Source: an uncultured Lachnospiraceae bacterium (GTDB lineage Bacteria > Bacillota > Clostridia > Lachnospirales > Lachnospiraceae). From it: a stretch of 44,954 nucleotides of DNA. Made by a program: the position numbers and the translations under genes. Positions 48 to 30,261 of the stretch are shown here, piece by piece (position 1 is the first letter of the stretch; each line of letters begins with the position of its first letter). Below the pieces are notes generated by a model. The model was not told the origin of the DNA. It was given only the letters and a program-made list of their open reading frames with translations, and ran no database searches. The stretch covers positions 1-44,954 of the forward strand of contig CABQGZ010000001.1 in assembly GCA_902463835.1 (NCBI GenBank), written 5' to 3'.

Positions 48-3000
48 ATGAAGAAACGAATGAAGCGGATAGGCGCACTTTTGTTGTCACTGACACTTTT
101 GGCCGGGATGGCCAATCTGTCTCTGCTGTCCATGCGTGCAGAGGCAGGCGGAAAGATTCAGAAAGAGCTCTATGTGGCGGTGAATGGCGATGACGCAAAC
201 GATGGCAGCAGGGAGAGACCTTTTGCCACGGTGGAGAGAGCCCGCCAGGAAGTGGACAAGATCAACGACGATATGACGGGAGACATCATTGTCAACATTG
301 GCGCGGGGGACTACTACCTGGATACCACCATCGTGCTTGACGAGGGAGACTCCGGTACCAACGGCTATGAGGTCATCTACCGGAGCAGCGATGGCATTGG
401 AAAGGCGAATTTCATCGGCGGAGTGCAGGTCACCGGATGGACATTGGCTGACCAGACCGATGTGGACATCTATGATCTGGATGCATCCCTGCTTGGAAAA
501 GTGTATAAGGTTCAGTTGGATCCAGAACAGTATCAGTTCAATACACTGTATGTAAACGATGTGCGGGCCACGATGGCGAGAACCAGGAACCGTGATAACA
601 ATCCAATGTTTCCCATGGCAAAGGGCGAGTATATGCGGTCCGCAGGCGGGCACAATAACAACAGGAATATGAACTATTATGCAGGAGATATTGATGAAAA
701 ATCACTTGCCGGTATGGTTCATGCCCAGGAAAGAGGCGAGAAAGAGATCGCGCAGGTATTTGTGTGGGATGGAGGAGACTGGGACTGGTTTACCAATACC
801 GTGCCAATCGCGTCTATCAACACCGACAGCCGCGAATTCAAATTCCCGACACCGCCGGAGGATTATCCGGAGAAGTACCGCACGAAATACAACATCGGTA
901 CAGGTGCAAGATATTTCCTGCAGGGAAATCTGGCATTCATGGATGTGGAAGGCGAGTATCATTATAATAAAAGCACAGGGATTCTGTACTATTATCCCAA
1001 GGCGGAGGATGGCGCCATTGAGACACAGACCATTGTGGTGCCCACCATGCAGCAGGTATTGTACTTAAAAGGTGCCGACAAGGAAAATCTGGCGGATGAA
1101 CCGGACCCGGAGAAGCAGGTACACAATATTACCATAGACGGACTTTCTGTCAAGGATACAGAATTCTCAGACTACTTTACCTATTCCTGGAACTGGGGAG
1201 ATGGCGGAGCCGGAATCGGTTATCATCCCAAGGCCTCGGAAGGCAGTACCAATCCGTCTTACTGTGAGAGCTGTGACAGGGAAGAATTCCGTGTAGGTTC
1301 TATCACATTGACAGGAACCCATAATATTACGATCACCAATACGAGAGTGAAGAATTCCGGGTTATACGGAATTATCTATGCAGGTGATAACCAGTATAAT
1401 GTACTGACCAATTCTGTGGTAGAAAGTACCGGATATGGCGGAATCTGCTTCGATGGCGGGTATCCGGGAATCGGAAAATATAACAATCACAATAAGGTAG
1501 AGAATGTACTGATTTATCAGGTGGGAGAACTGGTAGGCCATGCAGTTGGATTTACCCTGATGAGTTCCGGACAGAATAACTTCCGGAATATGGAAATCTA
1601 TGATACTCCCAAGCGAGCCATCCTGGTGATCGGCGGTTACCGCCGGGACTGGAACGGTGCGGACAGCAACTATGATGAGATCAAGGATATGTATACGGTA
1701 GGCAACCATTTTGATTACATTCATGTTCATGACGCACAGCAGGATGCAGGGGAGGACAGTGCGGTGTTCTTAAGCTGGCTTTTAGCCGGAAGAGATGTAA
1801 AGAGGCTGCATGGCTCCAATGATCCCAACAACCTGACCACGAATCTGGAAGGCATTGATACAACCATTGACCGTTACAATTACTTTAATCAGATGCTGAT
1901 TACAGATGTAGGAGCGGATCCGTCTGTAATTGAGAAATGTACGGTAGGCGGTCTGGATACTGCAATGGGAGCCACCGGCAGCTACTTTACGAATATCAAG
2001 GCAGCAAATACCCAGCATCATCTTCTGGCGATTCGTGACCAGTCCCAGGGAGATGGTTACGGTGATATGTATACTTATGAGAACTGTACCAACAACCTGT
2101 ATACGGACGATCTGCTCAAGACCTTTGACGACGACGCGATGGAGTACGACAAGATTGGTCTGACTGCAGATTTCCCGGAAGAATATCGTGTGGCTAAGAG
2201 AGTCTATAAGGATGCACCGGAAAATGTGTATTTCTATGATGATTTTGAGAGCTCCAAGAGTCTTGATGTGAGAAAATGGAGTGTGGAAAAGGGTTCTGTG
2301 GAGATGCATATCGGGTACGGCTATATGTCGGAGAATCCACAGACAGGAAGACGCTCTCTTCCCATCAATGCCGATTTGAATAAGAGCGGTGTTGTGGTAA
2401 GCCGTGAATTTGAGAATTCCTTAAACAAGATTGTAGAGGTTCAGTATCTGGATCGTAGAAAGGATTATGCGAATAATGACCGGGGAGATGCTGTACCTAC
2501 AGAGATTCTGCCCAATTCTTTCCTGAGAGTGGATGACGGAGAGAATGCCCTTGGAATCGGTGCGGTAGGAAGTGTATCCAAGGATTATTATGTGATCAAA
2601 AAGGGAGATGAGCTGATCAAAACAGATGTAAAACGCTGTTTCGGATGGCATACCTTCAAATTTGATTATAGTTCAGGAGACACAGTAAAGCTGTATATAG
2701 ATGATCAACTGATTGCGGAGTACACAGAGGCAGATGGAGTGGCTACCTCCTTTGACTATATCGGAATGGGAGACTGGGAAGGAAAGGGCGGCAAGGCTTT
2801 CTTCGACCAGCTGTATGTATATGGCGGTCAGGAGGCGCCGCCGGTGGAGGATCTTCCCTTGCCCACACCGCCGACAGCACCAGCGGAGGCATTGTTCCAG
2901 GAAGATTTTGAATCAGAGAATATTGCAGAGTTTAAAAAACAGAAAGGCAATGCCACAATTGAATATATTGCAGATCCGGATAAGGAAGAGAACACGGTGA

Positions 3001-4733
3001 TGCATGTGATATCGCCGGATGATTTTGTGTACTATCCGGACGGTTCAGATTGGTCCAACTATACGTTTGAGTGCAGAATTAAGATTGCGAACTGGGGTGT
3101 GAATGGAGCAGCTTATCCGTGGGACAATATGGCTCCGGTATGGAATGCCGGCTCCCAGGACAGCAAAGGAAACTTTAACCGTTATTCTCTGAAATACAGA
3201 AGAGAGTCAAAGGATTTTTCACTGTATCGAAGAGACGGAAGCGATACAGATATGATCTCTGCCGCTGCACCGGATAACTATGGCGGAGTCTGGCACGATT
3301 ATAAGATTATCACAATGGATGGTGTAATCACAGCTTACATTGATGGCGAAAAAATATTTGAACATACCGATTCTGCCAATAGGAACGGAACCGTTGGCTT
3401 TGATGGAATCAGTGTGGAATATTACGTGGATGATATTCGGGTAATGAGACAGAAAACGCCTGATCCTTCTGCTGATAAGGAGGAAGGAACCTACAAGGAG
3501 GCTGTGAAAGTAACATTGACGCCTGGAAGTCTGGGACAGGATATTTTCTATACCCTGGATGGAACAGACCCCACCGATCCGGAGCATGGTGTGTATTACA
3601 TACCAGATGAAGTAATTGTCATCGACAAGACTACTACGCTGAAATTTGCAGCCATTGCAGAGGGGGCGCTGTACAGTGATGTGATTACTGTGCAGTATAC
3701 CATTGAGAACGAGATTGAAGAACCGGAAAAAGTAAATAAATATCTGCTTCAGCAGACCTATGACTATGCAGTGAACTTAAGTACCGAAGGTGTGACGGCC
3801 AGCGCCAAAGCATACTTTGAGAAAGTGCTTGGGGAAGCGAAGGCAGTTCTGGATGATGAAAAGGCTGCCCAGACAGAGGTAAATAAGGCGTGGGACAACC
3901 TGCTGGAAGGCATCTGGGGACTCGGTCTCTACGAGGGCGACAAGGGTGCGCTGAAGGAGTTGATCGATCAGGCAAAAGCCATGGACAAGGGGGATTACGA
4001 GGCAGAGAACTGGGGAATGCTGGAAGCTGCGTTGGCGAAAGCAGAGAAAGTATATGCGGACGAGGATGCTACCCAGGATGTGGTCGACGAGGCAAAGGAA
4101 GAGCTGCAGAAGGCGATAGATGCCCAGGTTCTGAAGGCAATTGTGGATAAGAGCGTGTTAAAGCAGCTGATTGACAAAGCAACAGCAATGCTTCCGGAGG
4201 AAGAACGGTATGTGGCGGACAACTGGCCCAGGCTCATAGCAGGTCTGGAGAATGGACAGAAAGTCTACGACAACGGTGATGCCACCCAGGAAGAGGTGAA
4301 TGTGGCGGCGGAAGAACTGCTGAATGCCATCATTGCACAGCGTTTCAAAGCCAACAAGTCAAATCTGGAAAAGCTGGTGAAGGAAGCAGAAGGAATTAAT
4401 ACGGCACTCTATACAGCTAAGACGGTACAGGTATTCCGGGCAGCGCTTGCCAATGCGAAGGCGGTTCTGGCGGATGCGAGCCTGAGTCAGGATGAGCAGT
4501 CAGAGGTAGACAAGGCGGAAAAAGAGCTGAATGACGCTATCAAAGGACTGGTAAAGGAAGCTGTGGATGACAAAGATAAGGATACTGATGATACCAATAA
4601 CGGAAGCAACACCAATTCCACTGCTCCGAAGACAGGAGATCCATTCAACACAATACCATGGTTGGTTCTTCTGCTTGCGGCAATGGGAGCTGCTGCGGCG
4701 GCTGTAATTAAAAGAAAGAGAGAAATGGAATAG
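48..4733 (+). CDS. Giant surface protein A (1561 aa): signal peptide, N-terminal right-handed beta-helix (pectate-lyase fold) putative glycan-cleaving domain, LamG/DUF1080-like jelly rolls, CHB_HEX_C-like Ig domain, 4 FIVAR-like helical repeats, APKTG sortase signal
   Basis: Uninterrupted ORF 12..4733. GGAGG at 36-40 lies 7 nt before ATG 48. N-terminus MKKRMKRIGALLLSLTLLAGMANLSLLSMRAEA looks like a signal peptide. 'ELYVAVNGDDANDGSRERPFATVERAR...GDYYL' and 'LYVNDVRATMARTRN' are typical of the N-cap of beta-helix glycan-active enzymes. 'IFYTLDGTDPTD...TTTLKFAA' is CHB_HEX_C-like. The C-terminus is APKTGD, then a hydrophobic stretch, then KRKRE. Confidence 0.9.
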   Translation: MKKRMKRIGALLLSLTLLAGMANLSLLSMRAEAGGKIQKELYVAVNGDDANDGSRERPFATVERARQEVDKINDDMTGDIIVNIGAGDYYLDTTIVLDEGDSGTNGYEVIYRSSDGIGKANFIGGVQVTGWTLADQTDVDIYDLDASLLGKVYKVQLDPEQYQFNTLYVNDVRATMARTRNRDNNPMFPMAKGEYMRSAGGHNNNRNMNYYAGDIDEKSLAGMVHAQERGEKEIAQVFVWDGGDWDWFTNTVPIASINTDSREFKFPTPPEDYPEKYRTKYNIGTGARYFLQGNLAFMDVEGEYHYNKSTGILYYYPKAEDGAIETQTIVVPTMQQVLYLKGADKENLADEPDPEKQVHNITIDGLSVKDTEFSDYFTYSWNWGDGGAGIGYHPKASEGSTNPSYCESCDREEFRVGSITLTGTHNITITNTRVKNSGLYGIIYAGDNQYNVLTNSVVESTGYGGICFDGGYPGIGKYNNHNKVENVLIYQVGELVGHAVGFTLMSSGQNNFRNMEIYDTPKRAILVIGGYRRDWNGADSNYDEIKDMYTVGNHFDYIHVHDAQQDAGEDSAVFLSWLLAGRDVKRLHGSNDPNNLTTNLEGIDTTIDRYNYFNQMLITDVGADPSVIEKCTVGGLDTAMGATGSYFTNIKAANTQHHLLAIRDQSQGDGYGDMYTYENCTNNLYTDDLLKTFDDDAMEYDKIGLTADFPEEYRVAKRVYKDAPENVYFYDDFESSKSLDVRKWSVEKGSVEMHIGYGYMSENPQTGRRSLPINADLNKSGVVVSREFENSLNKIVEVQYLDRRKDYANNDRGDAVPTEILPNSFLRVDDGENALGIGAVGSVSKDYYVIKKGDELIKTDVKRCFGWHTFKFDYSSGDTVKLYIDDQLIAEYTEADGVATSFDYIGMGDWEGKGGKAFFDQLYVYGGQEAPPVEDLPLPTPPTAPAEALFQEDFESENIAEFKKQKGNATIEYIADPDKEENTVMHVISPDDFVYYPDGSDWSNYTFECRIKIANWGVNGAAYPWDNMAPVWNAGSQDSKGNFNRYSLKYRRESKDFSLYRRDGSDTDMISAAAPDNYGGVWHDYKIITMDGVITAYIDGEKIFEHTDSANRNGTVGFDGISVEYYVDDIRVMRQKTPDPSADKEEGTYKEAVKVTLTPGSLGQDIFYTLDGTDPTDPEHGVYYIPDEVIVIDKTTTLKFAAIAEGALYSDVITVQYTIENEIEEPEKVNKYLLQQTYDYAVNLSTEGVTASAKAYFEKVLGEAKAVLDDEKAAQTEVNKAWDNLLEGIWGLGLYEGDKGALKELIDQAKAMDKGDYEAENWGMLEAALAKAEKVYADEDATQDVVDEAKEELQKAIDAQVLKAIVDKSVLKQLIDKATAMLPEEERYVADNWPRLIAGLENGQKVYDNGDATQEEVNVAAEELLNAIIAQRFKANKSNLEKLVKEAEGINTALYTAKTVQVFRAALANAKAVLADASLSQDEQSEVDKAEKELNDAIKGLVKEAVDDKDKDTDDTNNGSNTNSTAPKTGDPFNTIPWLVLLLAAMGAAAAAVIKRKREME
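3729..4557 (+). repeat. C-terminal stalk cassette, copy 1 (four ~68-aa FIVAR-like three-helix repeats)
   Basis: KVNKYLLQQTYDYAV...AWDNLLEGIWGLG / GALKELIDQAKAM... / KSVLKQLIDKATAM... / FKANKSNLEKLVKEAEG...ELNDAIKGLVKE. Clearly homologous at DNA level to 10922..11752 and 17498..18328. Confidence 0.8.
4623..4733 (+). other. Cell-wall sorting signal: APKTG motif, hydrophobic segment, basic tail
   Basis: APKTGDPFNTIPWLVLLLAAMGAAAAAVIKRKREME at the extreme C-terminus. Confidence 0.75.
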
Positions 4734-4745
4734 AAAGTGATGAAG

Positions 4746-4776
4746 CAGAAGGAGATGCGGATGGCATCTCCTTCTG
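4746..4776 (+). terminator. Perfect 13-bp stem-loop just after gene A (no U-tract); putative terminator or mRNA-stabilising hairpin
   Basis: CAGAAGGAGATGC (4746-4758) pairs with GCATCTCCTTCTG (4764-4776) around a 5-nt loop. It starts 13 nt after the stop codon. The downstream sequence GCATCTAAAAAG is not T-rich. Confidence 0.4.
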
Positions 4777-4854
4777 GCATCTAAAAAGACCGTCTCTCGT
4801 GAATAAGAGCGAGAAAGAAACAGAGAAGATTCAATAGAATTTGTAGCTGTTGTT

Positions 4855-4948
4855 AAAAATCAGAGATGCTATTTTCGGAGGATTCCTACTATTGAGAGAA
4901 ATCATGAAATATCGTTGTGGAATGTCAAGGGAATTCGTGTAAAAATGT
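4855..4948 (+). promoter_or_regulatory. Putative promoter/leader region of the lone URO-D-like gene
   Basis: 254-nt intergenic gap. Contains CAGAGA / CGGAGG motifs, 'CTACTATTGAGAGAA' (4886-4900) resembling the TTACTTTTTGGAGTTGA block upstream of genes B and E, and 'GTGTAAAAATGT' (4937-4948) matching 'GTGTAAAATGT' at 1-11. The exact -35/-10 elements could not be assigned. Confidence 0.25.
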
Positions 4949-4987
4949 AATCCATGGAACAACCATAAGGAAAGAGGAGAGAATGGT

Positions 4988-5992
4988 ATGACACCAAGAA
5001 AATTAGTTTATGCAACATTAGAATTTTGCAACAAAAGCGAGCGGGCGCCGCGGCAGATGTGGACGCTTCCCTGGGCGGAGTGGAACCACGGGGATATGGT
5101 GGCCAGGATTCGGCAGGATTATCCAGACGATATTATAGGAGCGCCCTGTATCCTGCAGACGCCCACCATAGAGGAGGGAGATCCCTATCGCACCGGAGTC
5201 AGCCGGGATGCCTGGGGGTGCATCGTGACCAACATTCACCAGGGAGTCATCGGCGAGGTAAAAGAGGCGTTGGTACAGGATGAGGATTGGGAGGATGTAA
5301 CCAATGTCCATATTCCAAGGGAATGGCTGAGCTTTGACCGGGATGCGGTGAATGGTTTTTGCCGGGATACAGATCGATTCGTGACCTGCGGCTGTTGCCC
5401 GCGGCCTTTCGAACAGCTGCAGTTTATCCGGAAGACGGAGGAGCTGTATATGGATCTGATGGATATTCCAGAAAAGCTGAGAGTGTTTATGGGTGAGGTG
5501 CATACATTTTACTGTGAGCTCTTAGAAGAATGGGCCAAAACAGAGGTGGACGCCTTAACCTTCATGGATGACTGGGGCGCGCAGAAAAGTCTGCTGATTC
5601 ATCCGAATCTGTGGCGGGAGTTGTTCCGGCCCATGTATAAGGACTATATTGATATCGCAAAGCGCCACGGGAAGAAGATATTCATGCATTCAGACGGATA
5701 TATTCTGGATATACTTCCGGATCTGGCTGAAATGGGACTGGACGCCATTAATTCACAGATCTTCTGTATGGGTGTGGAGAAGCTGGAGCCTTTGGCAGGG
5801 AAGATTACCTTCTGGGGCGAGATGGATCGGCAGCATCTGCTGGTGGAAGGCACCAAAGAGGATATTCAGAAAGCAGTGGAGAAGGTGAGAGAAACCCTGT
5901 GGAAGGACGGCGGATGCATTGCGCAGTGCGAGTTTGGACCGGGGGCAAAGCCGGAGAATGTGTATGAGGTATTCCGTTCGTGGAATAAATAA
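4988..5992 (+). CDS. Uroporphyrinogen-decarboxylase (URO-D)/MtaA-like family protein 1, cytoplasmic
   Basis: 334-aa ORF. GAGGAG lies ~8 nt upstream of ATG 4988 (the ATG at 4984 hits a stop after 2 codons). No signal peptide. Paralogous to 30322..31296 and 31326..32354. 'IFMHSDGYILDILPDLAEMGLDAINS' matches the URO-D-fold 'H-x-[DC]-G...G.D' barrel strand. Confidence 0.8.
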   Translation: MTPRKLVYATLEFCNKSERAPRQMWTLPWAEWNHGDMVARIRQDYPDDIIGAPCILQTPTIEEGDPYRTGVSRDAWGCIVTNIHQGVIGEVKEALVQDEDWEDVTNVHIPREWLSFDRDAVNGFCRDTDRFVTCGCCPRPFEQLQFIRKTEELYMDLMDIPEKLRVFMGEVHTFYCELLEEWAKTEVDALTFMDDWGAQKSLLIHPNLWRELFRPMYKDYIDIAKRHGKKIFMHSDGYILDILPDLAEMGLDAINSQIFCMGVEKLEPLAGKITFWGEMDRQHLLVEGTKEDIQKAVEKVRETLWKDGGCIAQCEFGPGAKPENVYEVFRSWNK

Positions 5993-18497: not shown

Positions 18498-18523
18498 GAG
18501 GGGCTCTGCATGAACAGCCCCTC
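18498..18523 (+). terminator. Intercistronic hairpin between genes C and D (8-bp GC-rich stem, no U-tract)
   Basis: GAGGGGCT (18498-18505) pairs with AGCCCCTC (18516-18523) around a 10-nt loop that contains the ATG at 18510. Confidence 0.3.
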
Positions 18524-18557
18524 TCCTGTACCTTCCCAGAAATGGAGGAATATAGCT

Positions 18558-21500: not shown

Positions 21501-24500
21501 GAATTCATTGATCTGCGTGAAAATGTGGCAGCGTGGTTTGCACCGGAGGGATATTCCGAGCGCCACGAATCCACCACCGGCACAACGCCTTACTTCCTCT
21601 CCGGATATGGATACGAGGATGACGGAAAGGGCAACTATGCCAATTTTGCTTTCCCCAATGCTAACATCGGACCACGGTGGGGATATGCCACCAGCAGAGA
21701 CAACAATCTCTACCTGCACATTATGGAAGGCCCGGACAGCAAGATCGGATTCAGGGCCATCGAGAACAAGGTTTTAACCATTTCACCGGTAGCAGACAAG
21801 GTGACATCTGTTATCTGGCTGAACCGGGATGAGGAGATTGCGTCCTTCACCCAGGAAGGAGACACGCTGACCATTGATCTGAGCGGCGTGGAGGAAGATA
21901 AGGTTGACACCATCATCAAGGTTGTGACAGACAGCCAGGTGCGCAAGTACAAGCTGACCAACCTCTATCTGAAGGGAATTCCCACAGAGGACGGGAAGGT
22001 GCAGCTGGATGTGGAAGGATATATGACATATCCGGCACTGAAAGCAAGTCTGGAAAAGGTTATCTACAGCGTATCCAGCGGCGTCGTGACGGTGGATAAG
22101 AACGGTCTTGTGAGCCCGGTAAGCGACGGAACAGCCGTTGTGACAGTGAGCGGAACTTATGAAGGTACGACCGTGAGCGAGGATATCACCATCAGCGTCA
22201 AGGATGGCGCGGCATTTGTGGATGATGAGATCACCAGTGTGGCGCTGCATGTGGGAGAACGTGAGGTCTACGGTGAGGTTTCCTGCTATGGCATGTATGA
22301 CTTATCCTTAGAGGGACGTTCTGTGGACGGCGGAGCTACCGGTTTAAATGACGCGGAAATCATCTGGCATACCGGAACCGTGGATCTGAAGGGCGGCGAT
22401 AAGTATGTGCCCATTAAGATCACGGAGAACGACACGTTGATCGTCGGAAACGGGAAGCTGATTCCAAAGCCGGTACAGGAGCTGACCCGCGCCGTTGTGT
22501 GGGCGGAGGTAAAGAAGGACGGTACGACATATACTTCCAACAGAGTATATCTGGATCTGCGCCCGGCGGCAAATCTGTCAGGGGAAGCAAAGATCACTGC
22601 AAGCGCCAATGAAGCGTCTGTTGACAAGATAAAGGACGGGCAGATCGTAAATGGAACCACACACGACGATTCCAAATGGACTGCCGAAGGAAGCGGATGG
22701 ATGACCTTTGAGCTGCCCCAGAAGGCGGATATCTCTGAGATTGACATTTACTACAACACCAAAGATCAGAGCTATGTCAACACGCCTGCGACTATTGAGA
22801 TCCAGACCAGCGAGGACGGGGAAGCATGGACGACCCAGACTACTGCAAATGGGCCCAGCGGAAGCGCATGGTTTGGCTTCTACACTCCATACAAAGTAGA
22901 TTTTAACACGAAATATATCAGATTGCAGTTTACAGGAAGAAACGGTGGAGCCTTCGATATTATGGAAGTGATGCTCATGGGTGAGGATATCAGCAGTGCC
23001 TTGTCCCAGCTTGCATTAGATCCAACAGTATCGGAAGACGGAAAGCGCATCACCATCGACATGACAGGCCTGGATCAGCGAGGCGAGGAAGTCAGTCTGG
23101 AGGGTGCCCAGGTTACCGTGATCAGTGAGGATGAATCCGTTGTCAAGGTAAATGAGGACAATACGCTTGCACCGGTGAATCCCGGAAGAACAAGGATCAC
23201 AGTTCAGGTGATGCAGGCAGTGGTTGCCCAGAGACCGGGATATGCCGAGAACAGCTTCTTCGTAACTGTGAACGAAGCAGGAAAACTGGAATTATTGCCT
23301 TACTTAAGCGCAGTGGAGCTGGCTGTTCCTACCAGAACAGTTTCCTACGGCAAACCTCTTGTGGCGGCTCCGGTAATCAAACTCAGCGACGGAACGACTG
23401 TGGCGGCGAAAGACGCAGAGGTGCAGTATGTGATCGGAGACGAGCGCTTAAGACAGGTAGAAGGAACGAACACCCTTCTTCTTGATGAGGATATTGAAAA
23501 TGGATTTGCCACAACGGTAAAGGCAGTGGTAACTTACGACGGTATTACCGTAGAAAGTGAAGAGATAACAGTTACGGCACTTGGTAGGAATCTTGCGGTG
23601 AGCGCATCAAATGTGACAGTATCTTCCGTGAGAGACAGGAATGGTGTGCCGGATGGAAATAATGTGGATGACCGGTATACGGCAAATAAGGCAGTGGATG
23701 GCAATAAGAATACCTGCTGGGCTGCAAAACAGGCGGATAAATCTCCGTGGATCAAACTGGATTTTGACGCGGAGACAGAGATCGGCGGTGTGAACCTGGT
23801 TGACCGGGGACATGCGGTGAATGCCATTGTGGAAGGACTTCTGGAGTTCTTTGATGCAGAGGGACAGCTGATCTACAGCCAGAAAGTAACAGAGCTTGCA
23901 TGGGATGGTCAGCCGGACAACATAATTACCTTAGACCAGCCAGTGAAGGCATATTCCATGAGATTCACCATTGATCCGGAAGTGAAATATCACCAGGCGA
24001 CTTCTGAGCGTGGTCTGGCAGAGATACAGATTTTTGCACCGGAGATTACAGTTGAGAAAACGGTAGTGGAGACGATCGGAGCAGATGTGACAACGCAGGC
24101 AGGTACGGTGCCTGTTCTTCCCAGCGAAGACATTACGGTTGTGTACAACACGGGTGAGAAGGAACTTGTATCAGTAACCTGGAATACCATCGATAAGGCA
24201 GATGTCGCAGTGCCAGGAACCCTGGCAGTAGAAGGTGTGATCACAGGAACCGACATCAAAGTAAGCGCTAAGGTGACCATAACAGAGAATGAATCTCCGG
24301 AAGAACCGTCGAAATTGTTAGGTCTGCTGGAGCAGGTTTATAACAAGGCGAAGGATCTGAGCACAGACGGCGTGGTAGATTCCGCAGTAGCATTCTTCGA
24401 AAAAGCGCTGGCGGAGGCAAAGGATATCCTTGACAACAGACCGGAGGCTAGCGATGAAGAGATCACGGCTGCCATCGAAAAGCTCTTTGACGCGGTACAT

Positions 24501-25145
24501 GGATTAGGCCTTAAGAAGGGCGACAAGACCATGCTGGAGGTTCTGATTACAAAAGCGGAGGAGATGCAGAAGAATCAGGACAAGTATGTGGAGACACACT
24601 GGACACAGTTGGTGGATGCCCTGACAAAAGCCTATGGTGTTATGGAGGACGGAGACGCCATGGATGAGGATATTGTTCCCATGGTGGATGAATTGCTGGA
24701 TGCCATCGTGGCACAGCGGTACAAGGCCAACAAGTCTAATCTGCAGGAGCTGATCAACAAAGCAAGCGGAATTGATACCGCCAAGTATACGCCGGAGAGT
24801 GCAGCAGTATTCCGGGCAGCATTCAAGACAGCCCAGGCAGTGCTGGCAAACGAAGCTTTGACCGAGGACGATCAGGCACAGGTGGATGATGCAGCTAAAA
24901 TGTTGGCACGTGCGATGGACGGCTTGAAGCTGGCCGCGGCTGACGGAGATGACGGCAGCAAGAATGACAGCGACAAGGACGACAGTAACAAGGCAGACGG
25001 CAGCAGTAGCAGCGATGCAGATAAGTCGACGGCACCCAAGACCGGAGACAGCGCACCGATTGCCCTCTGGGGAATGACAGCATTACTGGCATTGTTTACT
25101 GAATTAGCAGCAGCCTGGAATCAGAGAAAAAAACGTCGCGTATAA
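18558..25145 (+). CDS. Giant surface protein D (~2195 aa), paralog of C: signal peptide, several F5/8 type C modules, jelly roll, He_PIG-like Ig, divergent GH29-like TIM barrel, Big_2 and Big_4 Ig domains, 3 FIVAR-like repeats, APKTG sortase signal
   Basis: Uninterrupted ORF 18510..25145. The preferred start is TTG 18558, with GGAGG at 18544-18548 and a 9-nt spacer, giving MRNKKMIGKRVTSVLLASTMLISTFAAGSSLLNVQAQ. Alternative starts are ATG 18573 and ATG 18510 (the latter lies in a hairpin loop). Collinear with protein C: 'NAPFVNTWLVSGPF', 'AVDGDRNTEW', 'YTWEIIDGALPDNL', 'KWFEEGRVGALSH', 'RYGIRFGLYYA', 'YLYFDGPQ' (GH29-like region ~20694-21935). Confidence 0.88.
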   Translation: MRNKKMIGKRVTSVLLASTMLISTFAAGSSLLNVQAQQVSGNAPFVNTWLVSGPFDTSVADGIYDTVVPENPNLAQKATPTVSSATLASNPASFLIDGSERNQWVTEGKEVPCWAQLEWEEPITVGCMGITLWADGRHRNKNYDLIFTYADGSESDAIRVETTVSDASAPTYYTPATPLENVKSVRVLVDPDLRPYPSITGIAEISVYRYALEEESASVAAIAQAEEDGEYVNLAGNAAVSASSSWQTGALDYPGDSPSADKLPKFAVDGDRNTEWISQMHDNWINDFDPAYWPKWDPKPTFVLEWDNPIEVKEVAFYDRHNAAWPDGTSNVAEVDVTLYDEKGNVLQTQKVTEIDPYSVTPGKATFDNAVKNVSKITLEIIHDGVKESRNVGLGFTEVEVYGREAEVPEVPAGKSITPTLGQNLEYGEERGAWEYFDDRIYNRNYDDYQDLNGYYAIKQNIDTKNKFVYAHTYVYSDKQQTAQVRVGASGSYRVYFNDRALIKPTVPAEVQKDMTVKQVTLKEGWNKLLIQIEHTYTEDVNGNGVPIAKDANVSYLGFYGRITDTSGNEIEGLVYSTECGDESALEITTKGLKDAEGLPRNVLPTGYKEWPYVWNKSTTNNAYGLSASAFRFQAAGGEPGYTWEIIDGALPDNLELLPDGTIADGLVNGKPDLNSDKGIIPATCEEGDYTFTLRVTDKAGNTAEKSFAITVEERPNKWFEEGRVGALSHCIAIPRTFVDPNFSADLWAERAKAQGHSLVSIEALQQNYYWPSKFADPKHDRNIYMAKDENGNVVDQLKIFEEAAKRYGIRFGLYYATEGGGLQHYSTDVFVQNVADLIERYSPDYLYFDGPQAMRGANYDVMYSNVRNYSNHIIINSNAWGEEFGDPDLGTHEASGIYSNVGRNHFVKKVVFEPWKSAHTKNNPTPYYARRDDYAQVAKEMIMNAGRGYVDNNDQMPLMSRGSNWDSPEDIATRYPKSLQEFIDLRENVAAWFAPEGYSERHESTTGTTPYFLSGYGYEDDGKGNYANFAFPNANIGPRWGYATSRDNNLYLHIMEGPDSKIGFRAIENKVLTISPVADKVTSVIWLNRDEEIASFTQEGDTLTIDLSGVEEDKVDTIIKVVTDSQVRKYKLTNLYLKGIPTEDGKVQLDVEGYMTYPALKASLEKVIYSVSSGVVTVDKNGLVSPVSDGTAVVTVSGTYEGTTVSEDITISVKDGAAFVDDEITSVALHVGEREVYGEVSCYGMYDLSLEGRSVDGGATGLNDAEIIWHTGTVDLKGGDKYVPIKITENDTLIVGNGKLIPKPVQELTRAVVWAEVKKDGTTYTSNRVYLDLRPAANLSGEAKITASANEASVDKIKDGQIVNGTTHDDSKWTAEGSGWMTFELPQKADISEIDIYYNTKDQSYVNTPATIEIQTSEDGEAWTTQTTANGPSGSAWFGFYTPYKVDFNTKYIRLQFTGRNGGAFDIMEVMLMGEDISSALSQLALDPTVSEDGKRITIDMTGLDQRGEEVSLEGAQVTVISEDESVVKVNEDNTLAPVNPGRTRITVQVMQAVVAQRPGYAENSFFVTVNEAGKLELLPYLSAVELAVPTRTVSYGKPLVAAPVIKLSDGTTVAAKDAEVQYVIGDERLRQVEGTNTLLLDEDIENGFATTVKAVVTYDGITVESEEITVTALGRNLAVSASNVTVSSVRDRNGVPDGNNVDDRYTANKAVDGNKNTCWAAKQADKSPWIKLDFDAETEIGGVNLVDRGHAVNAIVEGLLEFFDAEGQLIYSQKVTELAWDGQPDNIITLDQPVKAYSMRFTIDPEVKYHQATSERGLAEIQIFAPEITVEKTVVETIGADVTTQAGTVPVLPSEDITVVYNTGEKELVSVTWNTIDKADVAVPGTLAVEGVITGTDIKVSAKVTITENESPEEPSKLLGLLEQVYNKAKDLSTDGVVDSAVAFFEKALAEAKDILDNRPEASDEEITAAIEKLFDAVHGLGLKKGDKTMLEVLITKAEEMQKNQDKYVETHWTQLVDALTKAYGVMEDGDAMDEDIVPMVDELLDAIVAQRYKANKSNLQELINKASGIDTAKYTPESAAVFRAAFKTAQAVLANEALTEDDQAQVDDAAKMLARAMDGLKLAAADGDDGSKNDSDKDDSNKADGSSSSDADKSTAPKTGDSAPIALWGMTALLALFTELAAAWNQRKKRRV
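24306..24932 (+). repeat. C-terminal stalk cassette, copy 4 (3 FIVAR-like repeats, more diverged)
   Basis: PSKLLGLLEQVYNKAKDLSTDGV...YKANKSNLQELINKASGIDTAKYT...LARAMDGLKL. It lacks the 'GALKELIDQAKAM...' repeat found in copies 1-3. Confidence 0.7.
25032..25145 (+). other. Cell-wall sorting signal: APKTG motif, hydrophobic segment, basic tail
   Basis: APKTGDSAPIALWGMTALLALFTELAAAWNQRKKRRV. Confidence 0.75.
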
Positions 25146-25174: not shown

Positions 25175-25212
25175 AATCCCCGGTTTCCGAAAAGGGAAGC
25201 CGGGGATTTTGC
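25175..25212 (+). terminator. Rho-independent terminator after gene D
   Basis: 14-bp stem: AATCCCCGGTTTCC (25175-25188) pairs with GGAAGCCGGGGATT (25195-25208), with one G-U pair. A TTTT run follows. Confidence 0.75.
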
Positions 25213-25215
25213 TAA

Positions 25216-25239
25216 GTGCGCCTAGCGGCGCACATTTTC
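25216..25239 (+). terminator. Second, tandem rho-independent terminator
   Basis: GTGCGCC (25216-25222), TAGC loop, GGCGCAC (25227-25233), followed by ATTTTCG. Confidence 0.55.
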
Positions 25240-25263
25240 GTCGCATAAGTGAGTTAGCAAAAG

Positions 25264-25346
25264 ATTTTAGAGATGTCATTTCCACACATTTCAGAGTGAG
25301 TGTTACTTTTTTGAGTTGAAATATAGGTATATGTGCCGGAAAATAT
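25264..25346 (+). promoter_or_regulatory. Putative promoter/operator region upstream of gene E (blocks shared with 5997..6120)
   Basis: ATTTTAGAGA (25264-25273, identical 10-mer), TTTCAGAGT (25289-25297, identical 9-mer), TTACTTTTTTGAGTTGA (25303-25319, 16/17 match), GTATAT (25327-25332) and GTGCCGGAAAATAT (25333-25346). It lies downstream of two terminators, so a new transcription unit must start here. Confidence 0.4.
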
Positions 25347-25416
25347 AAGAACAAAGTGTCTGCGGTAAAAAAGAAGCAGAAGTAAAAAATCATTAAGGAG
25401 AGGAGAACTCAAACAA

Positions 25417-28400
25417 ATGAGAAAATGGAGGAAGGGCCTGAGCTTTCTTTTGGCGGCCAGTATGCTGGTATCTACGGCATTCGTATCGCCGCAAAGGGTT
25501 CAGGCGGAAACGAAAGAAAATGTTGCGCTGCACAAGACGGTGACCGTTGCGCCCGGCATGCCGGAGGCAGGAAAAGAACTGATCACCGACGGAGCAAAAG
25601 CAAGAGGCTGGGACAAGAGCTATATGTACCATACGTCAGCGGAGGCTGAGGACACGGCGACAAAGCCGTATATCACGATCGACCTGGGGGAGAGCTATGA
25701 TATTGATCAGATTGTGTATTTCGGTGTATGGCCGCCGGATGCAGGATACTATAATACATCCCATAACATGGTGATTCAGGTGTCCAACGATGCAGATTTT
25801 GCAGATGAGACTACAAAAACGGTATACAACACAGATGTGAATAATTTCTTTGGCTTTGGCGCAGGCACGGATGCTGCCGGATTGTACCAGGAGCCAAAGA
25901 ACGGGGAGGACGGCATCAGCGTCGAGTTCCCGACAACCAATGCCCGGTATGTGCGGTACTATCAGCACGGCGCTACCCAGCAGGGGCAGAGCACCAATTG
26001 CTGGCCCAACGCATTGACGGTGGGAGAGCTTGAGGTGTACACAGCCGGCGGAGAAATACCCGTTGTGCAGATCCCGGAGGGAAATGCTGCCTATCAGGCA
26101 GAAGTTACCGGTTCTGCGTTCAACTCCAAGGGGGCGGCCACCAATGGATGGTGGGGCGGTTACGGCCGCAACGATCTCTCCGACCTGACCTGCGGTTCCG
26201 TCACAGATAACTGGAAAGCCCCCAGTGTGAACGAGGACGGCGAACTGGGTGAGCTTGTCTATGTGCAGATGAAGCTGAAAAAAGCACAGGATATCAACAC
26301 CATCCAGATCTGGAGCAAGGGAGGCTTTACGTATCTGGCACAGATCGTTCAGATATCGGAGGACGGGAAGAACTGGACGAATGTGTACAATTCAGACACG
26401 GACAACAAGGCAGGACAGGATCCCTCTGATTCCGGAAAGACCGTCTGTGGAGGCAAGCTGGCGAATGGCACTCTGACCGGAGTGAAGGCGGGTGCGGATG
26501 AAGCCTATGCCGAAAATGGAGCAAAAACCATTGCCTTTGACACGACGAAGGCTCAGTATATCCGCTGGTGGTGCAGCGGCAACAGCACAGGCAACAGTCT
26601 GCCGCAGATGATTCAGCTGCAGGCATATAAGAAATGCATTGTCACCTTCGACTATAGAGATGGCGATAAGACAGAGAAGGTGTCTGTCACGGGCGGAAGC
26701 AACATCTCCAGGCCGGAAACACCCGTTTACTCAGTGGTCGGAAAGCTGTTTGACAGATGGACAGTAAATGAGGTTGGCGGCAAAGCGTGGGATTTTGGTG
26801 ATCCCGTCACCGAGGATATGATGCTTGTTGCCAACTGGATGGATGCGGACATTCATACCGTCACCTTTGACTCAGACGGCGGAACAGAGATCGCTCCGAT
26901 ACAGGTTACGGATAGTCTTGCCGTTGTCAGGCCGGAAAATCCCAGTAAGGAAGGAGCTGTCTTTGCAGGCTGGAAGCTGAATAAAGCGCCTTATAATTTC
27001 GGAAGCCCGGTGACAGGAGACATTACGCTTACCGCCACCTGGGTAGAACCAGCTCAGCCGGATGCGGTAGTGCTTCGTGCGGGTCTGCTGGACATGACCC
27101 TTGACAGCCATGGACAGGTGACGAAGCTTGTGAGCACTTTGGATGGAACAGACTACTATTCGGACGGACCGGATGGAAAATACAGAAGTCTGGTATCTTT
27201 GATCGCGGATTATCATATTGAGACGCCTACCTCTGTCTCCTATGATGAAAACGCAGGAATACTTACCTTTGGATTTGCCTCCATCAATGCGACGGCGGAA
27301 GTAACTGTGAAGAAACAGGGCGACTATACGTCTTTGACACTCTCTAAGGTGGAGAAACCGGACGGCATTTCCATACAGGCAATCCTTTGGGGACCAATCA
27401 AAAATACCATCACCACCGGAGGTCAGACGGTAGGAACCGCTTATGATGAGACATATGCCATCGGTATGCATATGCTGAATACCAAGACCATCGGCGGATG
27501 GCCCATCGAGTATAAGAATGATTTTTATGCGCCGGATCTGCCCACGGTAAACGGCTATGCGGATTCGCGTGTCACAAGAAATATCTATTCCAACACGGCA
27601 GCTTTCTCCACCTGGGGAAGCGCCCTGCAGGCATACACATGGGATTATACAAAGGATACCATGCGGACGATCGCTTATTTTTCGGAGGTAAAGCAAATGC
27701 AGCCCGCTATGACTGGAAAGTATGCGGATGAACTTGCCAGCATGATCGGATCCTCCGTGGCGCTGTATGGAACAAGACGGGACAATATACTGAATGTGAT
27801 ATCGAATATCCAGATCAAGGAGGGATTGCCGCATATCACCATCAATGGCCAGTGGCAGAAGACCTCTGTGGAGACAGGACAGGATTTCCTGGTATTCAAT
27901 GATGCGATCTGGGGACTGGATGTTGTAGAAAATGACGCAAAGATGGCCAACGCAGCCGGGATCAATTACATCTATGGCCAGTATGGCGCAGGCGGCCCCT
28001 GGAACGGTGACGGCTCCTATGAATTTAACGGTCTGTTTGGCGGTTCCGATGAGAATGCCAGGCTGTTGGTTGAAAAAGCTGCGGAATATGATGTGTATGT
28101 GGGTACACACACCCTGTCGAACCTTATCTCCTGGGGCACCAAATACATGACGCCGGAGGCCAGCAGCGCGTTATCCTACGCAGGATTTGCAGGATTGACC
28201 AGGGAGGCGGCAGCCTCGGATACGGAGCTCTATGTGAAGGACGGGCATCCATTCTCAAATGAAGTGGTAGGCGCATCCGGCGGCAGCAGACTTTTAAGAA
28301 TCGACAAAGAGCTGGTAACCTTTACCGATTGTGTTCAGGTAGGGGATGGGGAATGGAAGCTGACAGGCTGTACCCGCGGTGTGAATGGCACAAAGGCGGC

Positions 28401-30261
28401 AGACTACGTTGTCAGTGAGAATGTATATAAGCTCTGGGCTTACTACACATGCCCGGCACTGGGCGGATGGGAGTCCATCGAGCCGATGACTTCCCGTATG
28501 GGTGAAGTATATGGAGATATCGGCATCCACTGTATGTCCTATGATTCCTTTGAATCAACAAAATACTCAGTGTACAGCTCCATGCTTCCCGCAATGTACA
28601 TGAAGAGTGTATATAATGAGGTGAAGGAAGCTGGCAAGGCGGACGGATTCCTCACGGAAGCAAGTGATATGGACACCAATGTATGGGATGTACATTCCAG
28701 AATCAGCTGGGGCGAGTCCAATACACCGATCCATGCCATGATGAATTATCTGAATTACTACGAGCAGAACTTCTTCCCCTGTATGTTGGGATGGATGTAT
28801 GACCACGGAAATCACGGCGGATACGGGAAAGCGCAGCTGCTGATGAATCTGTCCATGAAGGGCGGCTGGAATGCCGGTGCAGGCTGGTATGTGAACCGGA
28901 ACACATTTAATTCTTATCCGTATATGGCGGAAATGCTCAAGACCTGGAACAACGCAATCCAGAAGGGAGCCTTTGTAGTCGGCGGTGAATACACCAAAGA
29001 GCTTCAGAATGAGATGAAAAACGCATGGATAAACGGAAAAGTATGGACCTTGACAGAGACGGTGGCGGACAAGGAATGGACGCTGCAGCAGGTGAATAAG
29101 GCGAATCTGGAAGAGAAAATAGGAGAGCCGGTTACACTGTATGCCACCAATAAGATTGCTGTTGAACAGACGGAAAACGGTGATATCGCAACCAGCGCTT
29201 CCAGGGATTACTCCAGAGTCCACGAGGGTGATGTTGTGACGGTATATGAGCAGGCATTTGACGGTTATCGCATGAAAGCCGGAACCTTGACCGTAACAGG
29301 TGTGGACGGAGCGGCTTGTGATCTGACGCCAGTGGAGGGAGAATCGGGAGCTTATACCTTTACGATGCCAGCCCAGGATGTGACCATCACAGCGGAGTTC
29401 GAGGCGGAGAAGCAGGAGACGGACAAGGCGGATAAATATCTGCTGCAGGCGACTTATGATTATGCCCAGACCTTAAGCACCGACGGTGTGACAGCCAGTG
29501 CAAAAGCGTTCTTTGAGAAAGCGTTGGCAGCTGCAAAGGTCGTTCTAGAGGATGAGGAAGCGGTTCAGGCAGAGGTTGACCAGGCATGGGACAATCTGCT
29601 GAAAGGTATCTGGGGTCTTGGTATTGTAAAAGGTGACAAGACTTATCTGGAACAGCTCATCTGGAAAGCGGAGAGCATGATGCCCAACGCGGACAAGTAT
29701 GTAGAGAGCTATTGGCCGCAGCTGACAGAAGCATTGGAGGCCGGAAAGGGCGTGTTCAATGATGAGGATGCCCTGGATGAGGATATTGAACCTGTGGTAG
29801 ATACACTGCTTAACGCGATACTTGCCCAGCGATTCAAAGCGGATAAGTCCAATCTTCAGGAACTGATCAACAAGGCTTCCGGAATCGACTTGACCCGGTA
29901 TACAGAGGAGAGTGTAAGTGTTCTGAAAGCAGCTATGAGGTCTGCAAAGGCAGTTATGGATGATGTGAATCTGAGTACAGATGACCAGACAAAGGTGGAT
30001 GAGGCAGCAAAAGAGTTAAATGATGCTATTGAGAGACTTGTGAAGGAAGCCTCCGTTGACGGCGATAGCGATGATAAGAACAATACGGAAGAAGGCGGAG
30101 GTAAGAACGGCAGTGCTGGAGACAACAGTAAGCCCAATGCGCCAAAGACGGGTGATCAGAGCGATGGCTTAATTTGGATGTTCCTGGTTATTGCAGCTTT
30201 TGGCATAGCCATGTTGGTTGTGAGAAAGAAGAGAGAAGACAGGAAATATGAAATGATGTAG
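25417..30261 (+). CDS. Giant surface protein E (1614 aa): signal peptide, 2 F5/8 type C modules, 2 Listeria-Bacteroides (Flg_new) repeats, ~690-aa unassigned central region, InlB-B-repeat-like domain, 3 FIVAR-like repeats, APKTG sortase signal
   Basis: AAGGAGAGGAG RBS precedes the start. MRKWRKGLSFLLAASMLVSTAFVSPQRVQAE looks like a signal peptide. 'VTFDYRDGDK...FDRWTV...LVANW' and 'VTFDSDGGTE...FAGWKL...LTATW' (26641-27050) are Flg_new-like. 'VTVYEQAFDGYRMKAGTLTVTG...YTFTMPAQDVTITAEF' is InlB-B-like. The C-terminus is APKTGD, then a TM segment, then RKKREDRK. Confidence 0.9.
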   Translation: MRKWRKGLSFLLAASMLVSTAFVSPQRVQAETKENVALHKTVTVAPGMPEAGKELITDGAKARGWDKSYMYHTSAEAEDTATKPYITIDLGESYDIDQIVYFGVWPPDAGYYNTSHNMVIQVSNDADFADETTKTVYNTDVNNFFGFGAGTDAAGLYQEPKNGEDGISVEFPTTNARYVRYYQHGATQQGQSTNCWPNALTVGELEVYTAGGEIPVVQIPEGNAAYQAEVTGSAFNSKGAATNGWWGGYGRNDLSDLTCGSVTDNWKAPSVNEDGELGELVYVQMKLKKAQDINTIQIWSKGGFTYLAQIVQISEDGKNWTNVYNSDTDNKAGQDPSDSGKTVCGGKLANGTLTGVKAGADEAYAENGAKTIAFDTTKAQYIRWWCSGNSTGNSLPQMIQLQAYKKCIVTFDYRDGDKTEKVSVTGGSNISRPETPVYSVVGKLFDRWTVNEVGGKAWDFGDPVTEDMMLVANWMDADIHTVTFDSDGGTEIAPIQVTDSLAVVRPENPSKEGAVFAGWKLNKAPYNFGSPVTGDITLTATWVEPAQPDAVVLRAGLLDMTLDSHGQVTKLVSTLDGTDYYSDGPDGKYRSLVSLIADYHIETPTSVSYDENAGILTFGFASINATAEVTVKKQGDYTSLTLSKVEKPDGISIQAILWGPIKNTITTGGQTVGTAYDETYAIGMHMLNTKTIGGWPIEYKNDFYAPDLPTVNGYADSRVTRNIYSNTAAFSTWGSALQAYTWDYTKDTMRTIAYFSEVKQMQPAMTGKYADELASMIGSSVALYGTRRDNILNVISNIQIKEGLPHITINGQWQKTSVETGQDFLVFNDAIWGLDVVENDAKMANAAGINYIYGQYGAGGPWNGDGSYEFNGLFGGSDENARLLVEKAAEYDVYVGTHTLSNLISWGTKYMTPEASSALSYAGFAGLTREAAASDTELYVKDGHPFSNEVVGASGGSRLLRIDKELVTFTDCVQVGDGEWKLTGCTRGVNGTKAADYVVSENVYKLWAYYTCPALGGWESIEPMTSRMGEVYGDIGIHCMSYDSFESTKYSVYSSMLPAMYMKSVYNEVKEAGKADGFLTEASDMDTNVWDVHSRISWGESNTPIHAMMNYLNYYEQNFFPCMLGWMYDHGNHGGYGKAQLLMNLSMKGGWNAGAGWYVNRNTFNSYPYMAEMLKTWNNAIQKGAFVVGGEYTKELQNEMKNAWINGKVWTLTETVADKEWTLQQVNKANLEEKIGEPVTLYATNKIAVEQTENGDIATSASRDYSRVHEGDVVTVYEQAFDGYRMKAGTLTVTGVDGAACDLTPVEGESGAYTFTMPAQDVTITAEFEAEKQETDKADKYLLQATYDYAQTLSTDGVTASAKAFFEKALAAAKVVLEDEEAVQAEVDQAWDNLLKGIWGLGIVKGDKTYLEQLIWKAESMMPNADKYVESYWPQLTEALEAGKGVFNDEDALDEDIEPVVDTLLNAILAQRFKADKSNLQELINKASGIDLTRYTEESVSVLKAAMRSAKAVMDDVNLSTDDQTKVDEAAKELNDAIERLVKEASVDGDSDDKNNTEEGGGKNGSAGDNSKPNAPKTGDQSDGLIWMFLVIAAFGIAMLVVRKKREDRKYEMM
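29425..30048 (+). repeat. C-terminal stalk cassette, copy 5 (3 FIVAR-like repeats)
   Basis: KADKYLLQATYDYAQTLSTDGV...FKADKSNLQELINKASGIDLTRYT...ELNDAIERLVKE. Confidence 0.7.
30139..30261 (+). other. Cell-wall sorting signal: APKTG motif, hydrophobic segment, basic tail
   Basis: APKTGDQSDGLIWMFLVIAAFGIAMLVVRKKREDRKYEMM. Confidence 0.75.

Follow-up and report, generated by a model that had tools for sequence, protein, structure and literature searches.

Five giant genes with a common stalk and anchor

Contig CABQGZ010000001.1 of an uncultured Lachnospiraceae bacterium (assembly GCA_902463835.1) carries an array of five giant genes, here called A to E, which encode multidomain proteins with a predicted signal peptide, a catalytic-type module, and one common stalk-and-anchor C terminus (Table 1). 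An earlier sequence-only reading had described them as a tandem battery of wall-anchored glycan-harvesting enzymes, and we followed that description up in the whole 44,954-nucleotide (nt) stretch of DNA, referred to below as the window. The window is the whole metagenome contig, NODE_270 of ENA ERZ1034934 in reversed orientation; since only 47 nt precede gene A, the array may contain further genes upstream. The listing of open reading frames (ORFs) has five long plus-strand ORFs of 1561 to 2211 amino acids (aa) at the positions first given for them. ORFs of this length cannot have arisen by chance, and the start of A, an ATG at position 48, is preceded by a GAGGAGG ribosome-binding site. Gene D has an alternative start (ATG at 18573) that would shorten the product from 2211 to 2190 aa. 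An identical copy of protein E is encoded on an independent assembly (ERZ27289099), and E is therefore no assembly artifact. The genes had been called consecutive; they do lie on one strand across about 30 kb, but a 334-aa gene of the URO-D family stands between A and B.

Pairwise identities bore out the proposed grouping into two paralog pairs and a singleton: A and B are 40% identical across about 1150 aa, C and D are 33% identical across about 1800 aa, and E has only the stalk in common with the other four. Each of the binding modules and immunoglobulin (Ig)-type spacers that had been named was confirmed by Pfam, namely F5_F8_type_C (C, D, and E), 3keto-disac_hyd/DUF1080 and Laminin_G (A and B), Big_2 (C), Big_4 (B and D), He_PIG (C and D), Flg_new (E), and, as weak matches, CBM_35_2 (C) and Cadherin-like (B). 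Dockerin, cohesin, SLH, and CWB2 families had no match at E<=0.01 in the five proteins, in line with the view that the array is non-cellulosomal. The internal tandem duplication in B appears recent and yields two copies of a LamG/DUF1080-like binding module of about 209 aa. In C at 12074-13846 (aa 30-620) and in D at 18657-20429 (aa 50-640), the conserved N-terminal segment NAPYINTWLVAGP... is followed about 400 aa on by WEYFDDRIFNRN...GWNKLLIE; together the two segments look like a single beta-sandwich cut in two by nested F5/8/DUF7402-type modules.

The ends of the five proteins agree closely with the signal peptide and the common stalk-plus-anchor C terminus that had been claimed for each. 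All five N termini have 4 to 7 K/R followed by a hydrophobic 12-mer (mean Kyte-Doolittle [KD] hydropathy, 2.1 to 2.8). At the other end, FIVAR repeats recognized by Pfam precede the sorting signal in every protein; the motif is APKTGD in A, D, and E and SPKTGD in B and C, and after PKTGD come an 18-residue hydrophobic stretch (best 18-mer KD, 1.7 to 2.8) and 4 to 6 K/R in the last 12 residues. The FIVAR regions of A, B, C, and E match the stalks of the NCBIfam models for LnbX and HypBA2, both wall-anchored bifidobacterial enzymes, and for ZmpB.

At the DNA level, stalk and anchor form a repeat at the 3' ends of the five genes (3711-4471, 10904-11664, 17480-18240, 24683-24847, and 29407-29960), with 75 to 83% nt identity among A, B, and C. 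The cassettes of B and C, neighbors that are not paralogs, are 76% identical in aa and 83% in DNA (A and C, 68% in aa) and are thus closer to each other than are the catalytic parts of the paralogs A and B (40% in aa), which suggests gene conversion or the exchange and shuffling of a cassette.

Table 1. Positions (nt) of the genes, modules, and signals in the window
Feature	Position	Strand	Description
Gene A	48..4733	+	1561 aa; signal peptide, GH141-related beta-helix, two ConA/LamG-DUF1080-type modules, CHB_HEX_C_1/Fn3_assoc module, FIVAR stalk, APKTGD signal
A catalytic-type module	150..2237	+	aa 35-730; right-handed beta-helix, collinear with PDB 9rx2 and GH141 BT_1002
A sorting signal	4623..4733	+	APKTGD, hydrophobic segment, KRKREME tail
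URO-D-family gene	4988..5992	+	334 aa; cytoplasmic; between A and B; distant MtaA/CmuA-like methyltransferase relative
Gene B	6158..11908	+	1916 aa; signal peptide, beta-helix, ConA-like module, tandemly duplicated LamG-like module, cadherin-like module, two Big_4, FIVAR stalk, SPKTGD signal
B catalytic-type module	6251..8377	+	aa 32-740; beta-helix
B internal tandem duplication	8905..9831	+	8905-9204 and 9532-9831; 86% nt identity; 627 nt apart
B sorting signal	11798..11908	+	SPKTGD, hydrophobic segment, basic tail
Gene C	11987..18481	+	2164 aa; signal peptide, N-terminal beta-sandwich with nested F5/8-type modules, He_PIG, GH29-like barrel and C-terminal sandwich, Big_2, F5/8, Ig-like modules, CBM6/35-like module, FIVAR stalk, SPKTGD signal
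C catalytic-type module	14051..15400	+	aa 689-1138; divergent GH29-like (beta/alpha)8 barrel and beta-sandwich; putative nucleophile D832 (YLFFDG), candidate acid/base E874
C sorting signal	18368..18481	+	SPKTGD, hydrophobic segment, basic tail
Gene D	18510..25145	+	2211 aa; core as in C, three or four F5/8/DUF7402 modules, He_PIG, GH29-like barrel, Big_4, FIVAR stalk, APKTGD signal
D catalytic-type module	20700..22100	+	GH29-like; putative nucleophile D866 (YLYFDG)
D sorting signal	25032..25145	+	APKTGD, hydrophobic segment, RKKRRV tail
Gene E	25417..30261	+	1614 aa; signal peptide, two F5/8, two Flg_new repeats, catalytic-type module without Pfam match, Flg_new_2-like module, FIVAR stalk, APKTGD signal
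E catalytic-type module	27025..29400	+	aa 537-1328; N-terminal beta-sandwich, (beta/alpha)8 barrel with inserted beta subdomain, C-terminal beta domains
E sorting signal	30139..30261	+	APKTGD, hydrophobic segment, basic tail
URO-D-family genes, two	30262..32354	+	30262-31296 and 31326-32354; cytoplasmic
GH38	32356..35484	+	alpha-mannosidase; no signal peptide
GH43	35524..37620	+	beta-xylosidase/alpha-L-arabinofuranosidase type; no signal peptide
DUF5054	37617..39515	+	632 aa; no signal peptide
GH2	39541..42519	+	LacZ-type beta-galactosidase; no signal peptide
AraC-type regulator	42605..44923	-	772 aa; membrane-sensor

Catalytic-type modules of the three protein families

A catalytic-type region had been placed at the N terminus of each protein; this holds for A and B, but the corresponding modules of C and D (about aa 690-1135) and of E (about aa 537-1250) are central. 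In A and B the module is related to glycoside hydrolase (GH) family 141. A profile of 24 A/B sequences (alignment A6) matched PDB entry 9rx2, a "parallel beta-helix repeat protein," at E 5e-72 and the GH141 founder BT_1002 (5mqp) at E 3e-40, the latter collinearly at chain positions 24-155 and 234-546, and single sequences also reached BT_1002 (B, 2e-11; A, 8e-7). A and B have the whole beta-helix and an inserted beta-sandwich in common with BT_1002 and 9rx2 and are nearer to 9rx2, an unpublished entry for which we found no paper, than to BT_1002; they differ from both in being longer by about 900 to 1200 residues, which make up their binding, stalk, and anchor modules. The beta-helix superfamily as a whole is large (10,008 representatives at E<=1e-3).

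The catalytic Asp pair of BT_1002 is D523 and D564 (PMC10154630, PMC12786026). One Asp of BT_1002, at SEQRES position 528 and probably the published D523, falls opposite a position of the A/B family consensus that is acidic and in most members an Asp (E535/D536 in A, D/D in B); in A the conserved acidic pair lies within QQDAGED. Characterized GH141 enzymes include the fucosidase BT_1002, the xylanase Xyn141E, and the Wf141 endo-fucanases.

The modules of C and D resemble GH29 alpha-L-fucosidases and alpha-L-galactosidases in the (beta/alpha)8 barrel, the C-terminal beta-sandwich, and the nucleophile Asp, at an identity of about 12 to 15%. Their family profile matches at least 16 GH29 structures, over both the barrel and the sandwich, and all of the best 50 PDB matches that Foldseek returned for a model of C are GH29 (E down to 1.8e-15; template-modeling [TM] scores, 0.5 to 0.6). 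Among the closest GH29 sequences is the bifidobacterial alpha-1,3/4-fucosidase AfcB, whose D172 (VWLDG), which we take to be its nucleophile, aligns with the Asp of YLFFDG in C (D832) and YLYFDG in D (D866). This Asp, within the motif P-x-Y-L-x-F-D-G, is invariant in a 6-sequence alignment (A3) and kept in >=90% of a 12-sequence alignment (A4). A Glu about 42 residues farther on (E874 in C, E910 in D) is kept in every sequence that covers the position and is a candidate acid/base. Unlike GH29 enzymes, C and D hold the barrel in a conserved core of about 1100 to 1300 aa with its own N-terminal beta-sandwich and He_PIG module, a core found in about 40 species-level genomes.

For E, the sole sequence match within the module was that of its inserted beta subdomain to Rcc01698_C, and NCBIfam gave no match outside the stalk. 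An AlphaFold2 (AF2) model from 32 homologs (predicted local distance difference test [pLDDT] 90; predicted TM score [pTM] 0.91) has the architecture common to GH101, GH129, GH31, and GH36, with a beta-sandwich at the N terminus, a (beta/alpha)8 barrel, and another beta-sandwich at the C terminus. Foldseek matched it to GH101, GH36, GH31, and GH129 at probability 1.00 and E 7e-15 to 1e-10, with about 10% identity; the best structural matches were the GH101 enzymes EngBF and SpGH101, along with the GH36 A-antigen alpha-galactosaminidase of Flavonifractor plautii. In an alignment of 33 family members at 22 to 70% identity, 35 positions are invariant, among them D1043, E1046, E1100, E965, H806, H898, K815, and R987.

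Two assignments of E were considered and rejected. Membership by sequence in GH101, GH129, GH31, or GH36 was ruled out for want of any hidden Markov model (HMM) or PDB sequence match. GH139, a 2-O-methyl-fucosidase family suggested by the fucose context and a size of about 800 aa, was ruled out by fold: GH139 structures are (alpha/alpha)6 toroids, like GH95 (PMC12282258), whereas the E model is a beta/alpha barrel, and neither GH139 nor GH95 is among its top 50 Foldseek matches. The E core, of about 790 aa, is a good candidate for a GH family not yet classified. More than 502 relatives at 25 to 28% identity were found in metagenomes from marine, sediment, sludge, and gut samples, and the family is thus much wider than the first search indicated.

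Neighboring genes and relatives in other genomes

The array is followed by cytoplasmic genes for GH38, GH43, DUF5054, and GH2 proteins and by an AraC-type regulator, and because of this setting a role in glycan harvesting fits. Beyond the regulator gene the contig continues for about 30 nt. For DUF5054 there is no solved relative, and we found no paper. The three URO-D paralogs score far below the family cut-offs and are distantly related to the MtaA/CmuA corrinoid methyltransferases. Between D and E lie a terminator-like hairpin at 25216-25233 (7 bp, 6 of them GC), the sole intergenic one, and a promoter-like site at 25316-25344. Gene E and the cytoplasmic genes downstream of it may form a separate transcription unit.

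Relatives of D were sought with a degenerate pattern in one genome per GTDB species, and their neighbors were counted within 10 kb. The scan gave 40 loci, so the C/D family is not a rare one; word-index homolog searches, with 6 to 14 matches, had badly under-reported it. The genera are Paenibacillus, Cohnella, Neobacillus, Bacillus, Streptomyces, Kribbella, Nonomuraea, Micromonospora, and Wenjunlia, and metagenome-assembled genomes (MAGs) of Akkermansiaceae/Luteolibacter, Sedimentisphaerales, and Lachnospiraceae also carry the family. The best matches to D in the GTDB representatives are about 50% identical, a Lachnospiraceae MAG being among them (48%). Two D-family paralogs stand in tandem at 10 loci, which makes the C/D pair a conserved feature. 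The sequence-only reading had called the density and gene size of the array unusual; large size and tandem pairs proved normal for these Bacillota families, and it is mainly the run of five that stands out.

Synteny in related genomes favored a glycan-harvesting role: relatives of the A/B, C/D, and E families adjoin one another in Paenibacillus, Neobacillus, Bacillus, and Streptomyces, and next to them are genes for ABC sugar transporters and genes of the L-fucose-catabolism type. Near the 40 D-family loci, A-like genes occur at 3-4, E-like genes at 6 (in Streptomyces often as two copies flanking the D-like gene), GH2 at 6, DUF5054 at 2, and homologs of the AraC-type regulator at 4 (Cohnella and Paenibacillus). 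More frequent are ABC permeases (25 and 23 loci), GntR/FCD regulators (18), GFO/IDH/MocA oxidoreductases (12), MR_MLE dehydratase-type genes (11), and GH35 (9); GH20 occurs at one locus, as does the set of Amidohydro_2, SDR, and FAA-hydrolase genes. An MR_MLE protein of the L-fuconate dehydratase type, an Amidohydro_2 lactonase, an SDR protein, and an FAH hydrolase make up the Xanthomonas-type non-phosphorylative route of L-fucose breakdown. The DUF5054 genes in Cohnella and Paenibacillus lie at L003:21480-23591 and L027:7350-9452 (L numbers are our locus labels). At four Streptomyces loci (L015, L020, L030, and L032), two E-family paralogs of about 790 to 890 aa lie on either side of a D-family gene; at L020 the upstream copy, of 810 aa, ends in a He_PIG Ig domain, and a GH20 hexosaminidase with F5/8 modules lies between the two.

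The distant E family was examined in the best 80 metagenome loci (L043-L122) of the more than 502 relatives. Neighbors there include sulfatases (13), SDR proteins (11), GH95 fucosidases (9), FAA hydrolases (5), SusC (5), and SusD (5), and family members are often part of SusC/SusD polysaccharide-utilization loci that also hold sulfatases and GH95 fucosidases. None of these 80 loci has a D-family gene near the E-family member, and the D-E linkage is therefore limited to the closer E subfamily. At three of the metagenome loci, weak URO-D-like matches lie near the distant E-family genes (L047:7575-8183, L054:1901-2404, and L112:4677-5129).

Homologs of the three families differ in how they end. 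In Paenibacillus and Bacillus, enzymes of the same three catalytic families have the FIVAR stalk but end in Dockerin_1 (L005:11351-11800, L009:7611-8060, L035:9246-9695, and L041:22612-23061), whereas the proteins of the window end in a sortase-type signal and lack a dockerin; no obvious cohesin scaffold was seen in the dockerin-bearing loci examined. In Streptomyces the D-like homologs are shorter, with an F5/8-type module at the end of most of them. The homolog in the Lachnospiraceae MAG ends in FIVAR, APKTGD, a transmembrane segment, and RKKR. Since FIVAR is joined to a dockerin in the bacilli and to APKTGD in Lachnospiraceae, stalk and terminal module appear from these sequences to be an exchangeable surface-attachment device, with attachment specific to the lineage. 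In Bacillus sp. FJAT-28004, a 1453-aa E-like gene and an ABC transporter precede the D-family homolog (L009:10007-20665), which reads as an ORF of 3552 aa broken by a masked stretch of N.

The array as the probable surface front end of a glycan-utilization locus

We consider it likely, with a probability of roughly 70%, that the array is the surface-displayed front end of a Gram-positive polysaccharide-utilization locus (gpPUL) for a fucosylated glycan. That the five proteins are glycan-harvesting enzymes, as first claimed, agrees with the catalytic folds found in all of them, through the 9rx2/BT_1002 profile in A and B, the GH29 profile and Foldseek in C and D, and the structural model of E; an adhesin-only architecture was not what these searches returned. 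As substrate, a complex glycan that contains fucose and comes from plants, diet, or microbes is the most likely, judging by gene neighborhoods in other genomes, since the neighbors of the D and E families include L-fucose-catabolism-type genes and GH95 fucosidases. Of the glycans named earlier, mucin, N-glycans, and arabinogalactan, the analysis neither bears out nor discards any. We infer enzyme activity, covalent anchoring, and co-regulation from sequence.

In the proposed mechanism, a Sec signal peptide would export each giant glycoside hydrolase, and the helical FIVAR stalk would keep the protein off the wall. The (A/S)PKTG motif would most likely be cut by a class-B-type sortase and the protein linked to peptidoglycan; failing that, the C-terminal helix would act as a membrane tether. 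The F5/8-, LamG/DUF1080-, and CBM6/35-type modules would bind the glycan, which would be cut by the GH141-related beta-helix of A and B, the divergent GH29-like barrel of C and D, and the GH101/GH36-like alpha-glycosidase-type barrel of E. Released oligosaccharides would be imported by a transporter that is not on the contig, and the cytoplasmic GH38, GH43, DUF5054, and GH2 proteins would complete the breakdown under control of the AraC-type sensor-regulator.

Known systems offer close parallels to this arrangement. A gpPUL is defined by a degradative enzyme, a transporter, and a regulator (Sheridan et al. 2016, PMC5320581). The gpPULs of Roseburia and Eubacterium rectale (PMC5320581) resemble the array in having same-strand secreted multi-modular carbohydrate-active enzymes (CAZymes), with exo-glycosidases of the cytoplasm and an AraC-type regulator after them, and in binding glycan through carbohydrate-binding modules (CBMs) and not SusC/D. 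The array differs in that five giants of 1.5 to 2.2 thousand aa in a row are many, in that the catalytic modules lie outside the well-characterized GH subfamilies, and in that the contig has the degradative enzymes and the regulator but not the transporter, whereas homologous loci do have ABC sugar transporters. The Bifidobacterium enzymes LnbX (GH136), HypBA2 (GH121), EngBF (GH101), and AfcB (GH29) have the same build of signal peptide, catalytic module, CBM and Ig modules, FIVAR, and sorting signal. Likeness to LnbX and HypBA2 is confined to the stalk, E resembles EngBF in fold, and C and D align with AfcB at the nucleophile; the bifidobacterial motif is LPXTG in contrast to (A/S)PKTG here, and the catalytic modules of the array are not GH136, GH121, or GH101 by sequence.

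A number of observations weigh against a surface-displayed glycan-degrading system of this kind. The 44,954 nt hold neither a transporter gene nor a sortase gene, and promoter and terminator scans were at chance level. None of the close relatives has been assayed as an enzyme. Pfam GH141_M scores were 16.9 bits for A and 20.9 bits for B against a gathering cut-off of 27, and the second GH141 catalytic Asp, D564, falls outside the aligned stretch. Alpha_L_fucos reached 21.8 bits against a cut-off of 25.2 in D (aa 754-959) and had no match in C, the AF2 model of C is of low confidence (pLDDT 62, pTM 0.66), and the GH29 "HHDGF" His-pair segment aligns with LQxxYYWP in C and D. Because xxYYWP replaces that segment, the -1 pocket of C and D would be remodeled and specificity for fucose is not assured. 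None of the 33 E-family members has a GH Pfam match at E<=0.1, the E profile found no PDB sequence at E<=1, and the TM scores of the E model to GH101 and GH36 are just 0.35 to 0.45. Finally, some SPKTG proteins of Clostridioides difficile are reported not to be found in the wall fraction (PMC5569036).

It is unlikely, in our estimate, that the array takes host glycans such as mucin O-glycans and blood-group or Lewis structures in place of plant or microbial ones, with E acting as a GH101-like or GH36 A-antigen-like enzyme and C and D as Lewis-type fucosidases. The structural matches of E to EngBF, SpGH101, and the F. plautii A-antigen enzyme would suit such a diet, but the likeness to GH101 is at the level of fold only. 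AfcB is among the closest GH29 sequences, the nearest relative with the same anchor is in a Lachnospiraceae MAG, and F5/8 (CBM32-like) modules, present in C, D, and E, are frequent in mucin-degrading enzymes. However, the three families co-occur mainly in the soil genera Paenibacillus, Cohnella, Neobacillus, Streptomyces, Kribbella, and Nonomuraea, the window has no sialidase, GH20, GH84/89, GH95, or GH98, and the downstream GH43 of the xylosidase/arabinofuranosidase type and GH38 suit plant-type glycans better.

We likewise give a low probability to active enzymes that are not covalently linked to the wall, being held by a permanent membrane helix, or shed, with APKTG left unprocessed by the sortase of the organism. 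SPKTG is an experimentally validated sorting motif of C. difficile SrtB, whose substrates carry (S/P)PXTG signals (PMC4155245, PMC5569036, PMC4591827), and B and C carry exactly SPKTG with the hydrophobic segment and basic tail of SrtB substrates. The APKTG of A, D, and E, three of the five proteins, is not the validated SPKTG or PPKTG and is not listed among the tested motifs in the papers found; the substrates described there are of adhesin, hydrolase, or nucleotidase type and not giant CAZymes as here. The TIGR01167 model of the LPXTG anchor matches E only, and weakly (17.5 bits), the contig lacks a sortase gene, and C. difficile sortase substrates are reported at disparate locations (PMC5569036). 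Nevertheless, the PKTGD core is invariant, and the full tripartite signal is present in all five proteins and in the separate Lachnospiraceae MAG homolog; such conservation would be expected of a recognized motif and not of a plain membrane helix. The model of IsdC, an SrtB substrate, also matches the C termini of C, D, and E weakly.

That the proteins are surface adhesins or lectin arrays whose enzyme-like modules bind glycan without catalysis is very improbable: most of each protein does consist of binding and Ig-type modules, the GH-family HMM scores are under their cut-offs, and the His-pair segment of C and D is changed, but the C/D nucleophile Asp is invariant with a conserved Glu about 42 residues downstream, the E-family acidic residues are invariant across 33 sequences at 22 to 70% identity, most A/B family members have an acidic residue aligned to the BT_1002 Asp, and homologs are embedded in loci of sugar transport and catabolism, with cytoplasmic exo-glycosidases directly after the array here.

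Returning to the array as the front end of a gpPUL, a broader proposal can be made that we hold to be doubtful, though conceivable. The E core would be a new and widespread GH family, which together with A/B and C/D would form a conserved pathway for a fucosylated glycan (sulfated in the marine relatives), and in this anaerobe the three cytoplasmic URO-D/MtaA-like proteins would also remove O-methyl groups from released sugars such as 2-O-methyl-fucose or 2-O-methyl-xylose.

In sum, the design of the array is already known and no new principle is involved; what is notable is that five giants carry one cassette and that the catalytic modules of the five sit on the margin of the characterized GH families or outside them. 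Surface attack on complex glycans by Gram-positive bacteria of gut and soil is far less mapped than the Sus paradigm of Bacteroides, and this contig has, in one organism, three poorly characterized catalytic families fused to one exchangeable stalk-and-anchor cassette. Three biochemical targets emerge: the unclassified (beta/alpha)8 module of E, the GH29-like module of C and D with its altered sugar pocket, and the A/B module related to 9rx2 and GH141. The homologs also constitute a natural experiment in attachment, since those of Lachnospiraceae have a sortase signal, those of Paenibacillus a dockerin, and those of Streptomyces neither of the two. Collectively, the cross-genome comparison ties the three families to each other and to fucose catabolism.

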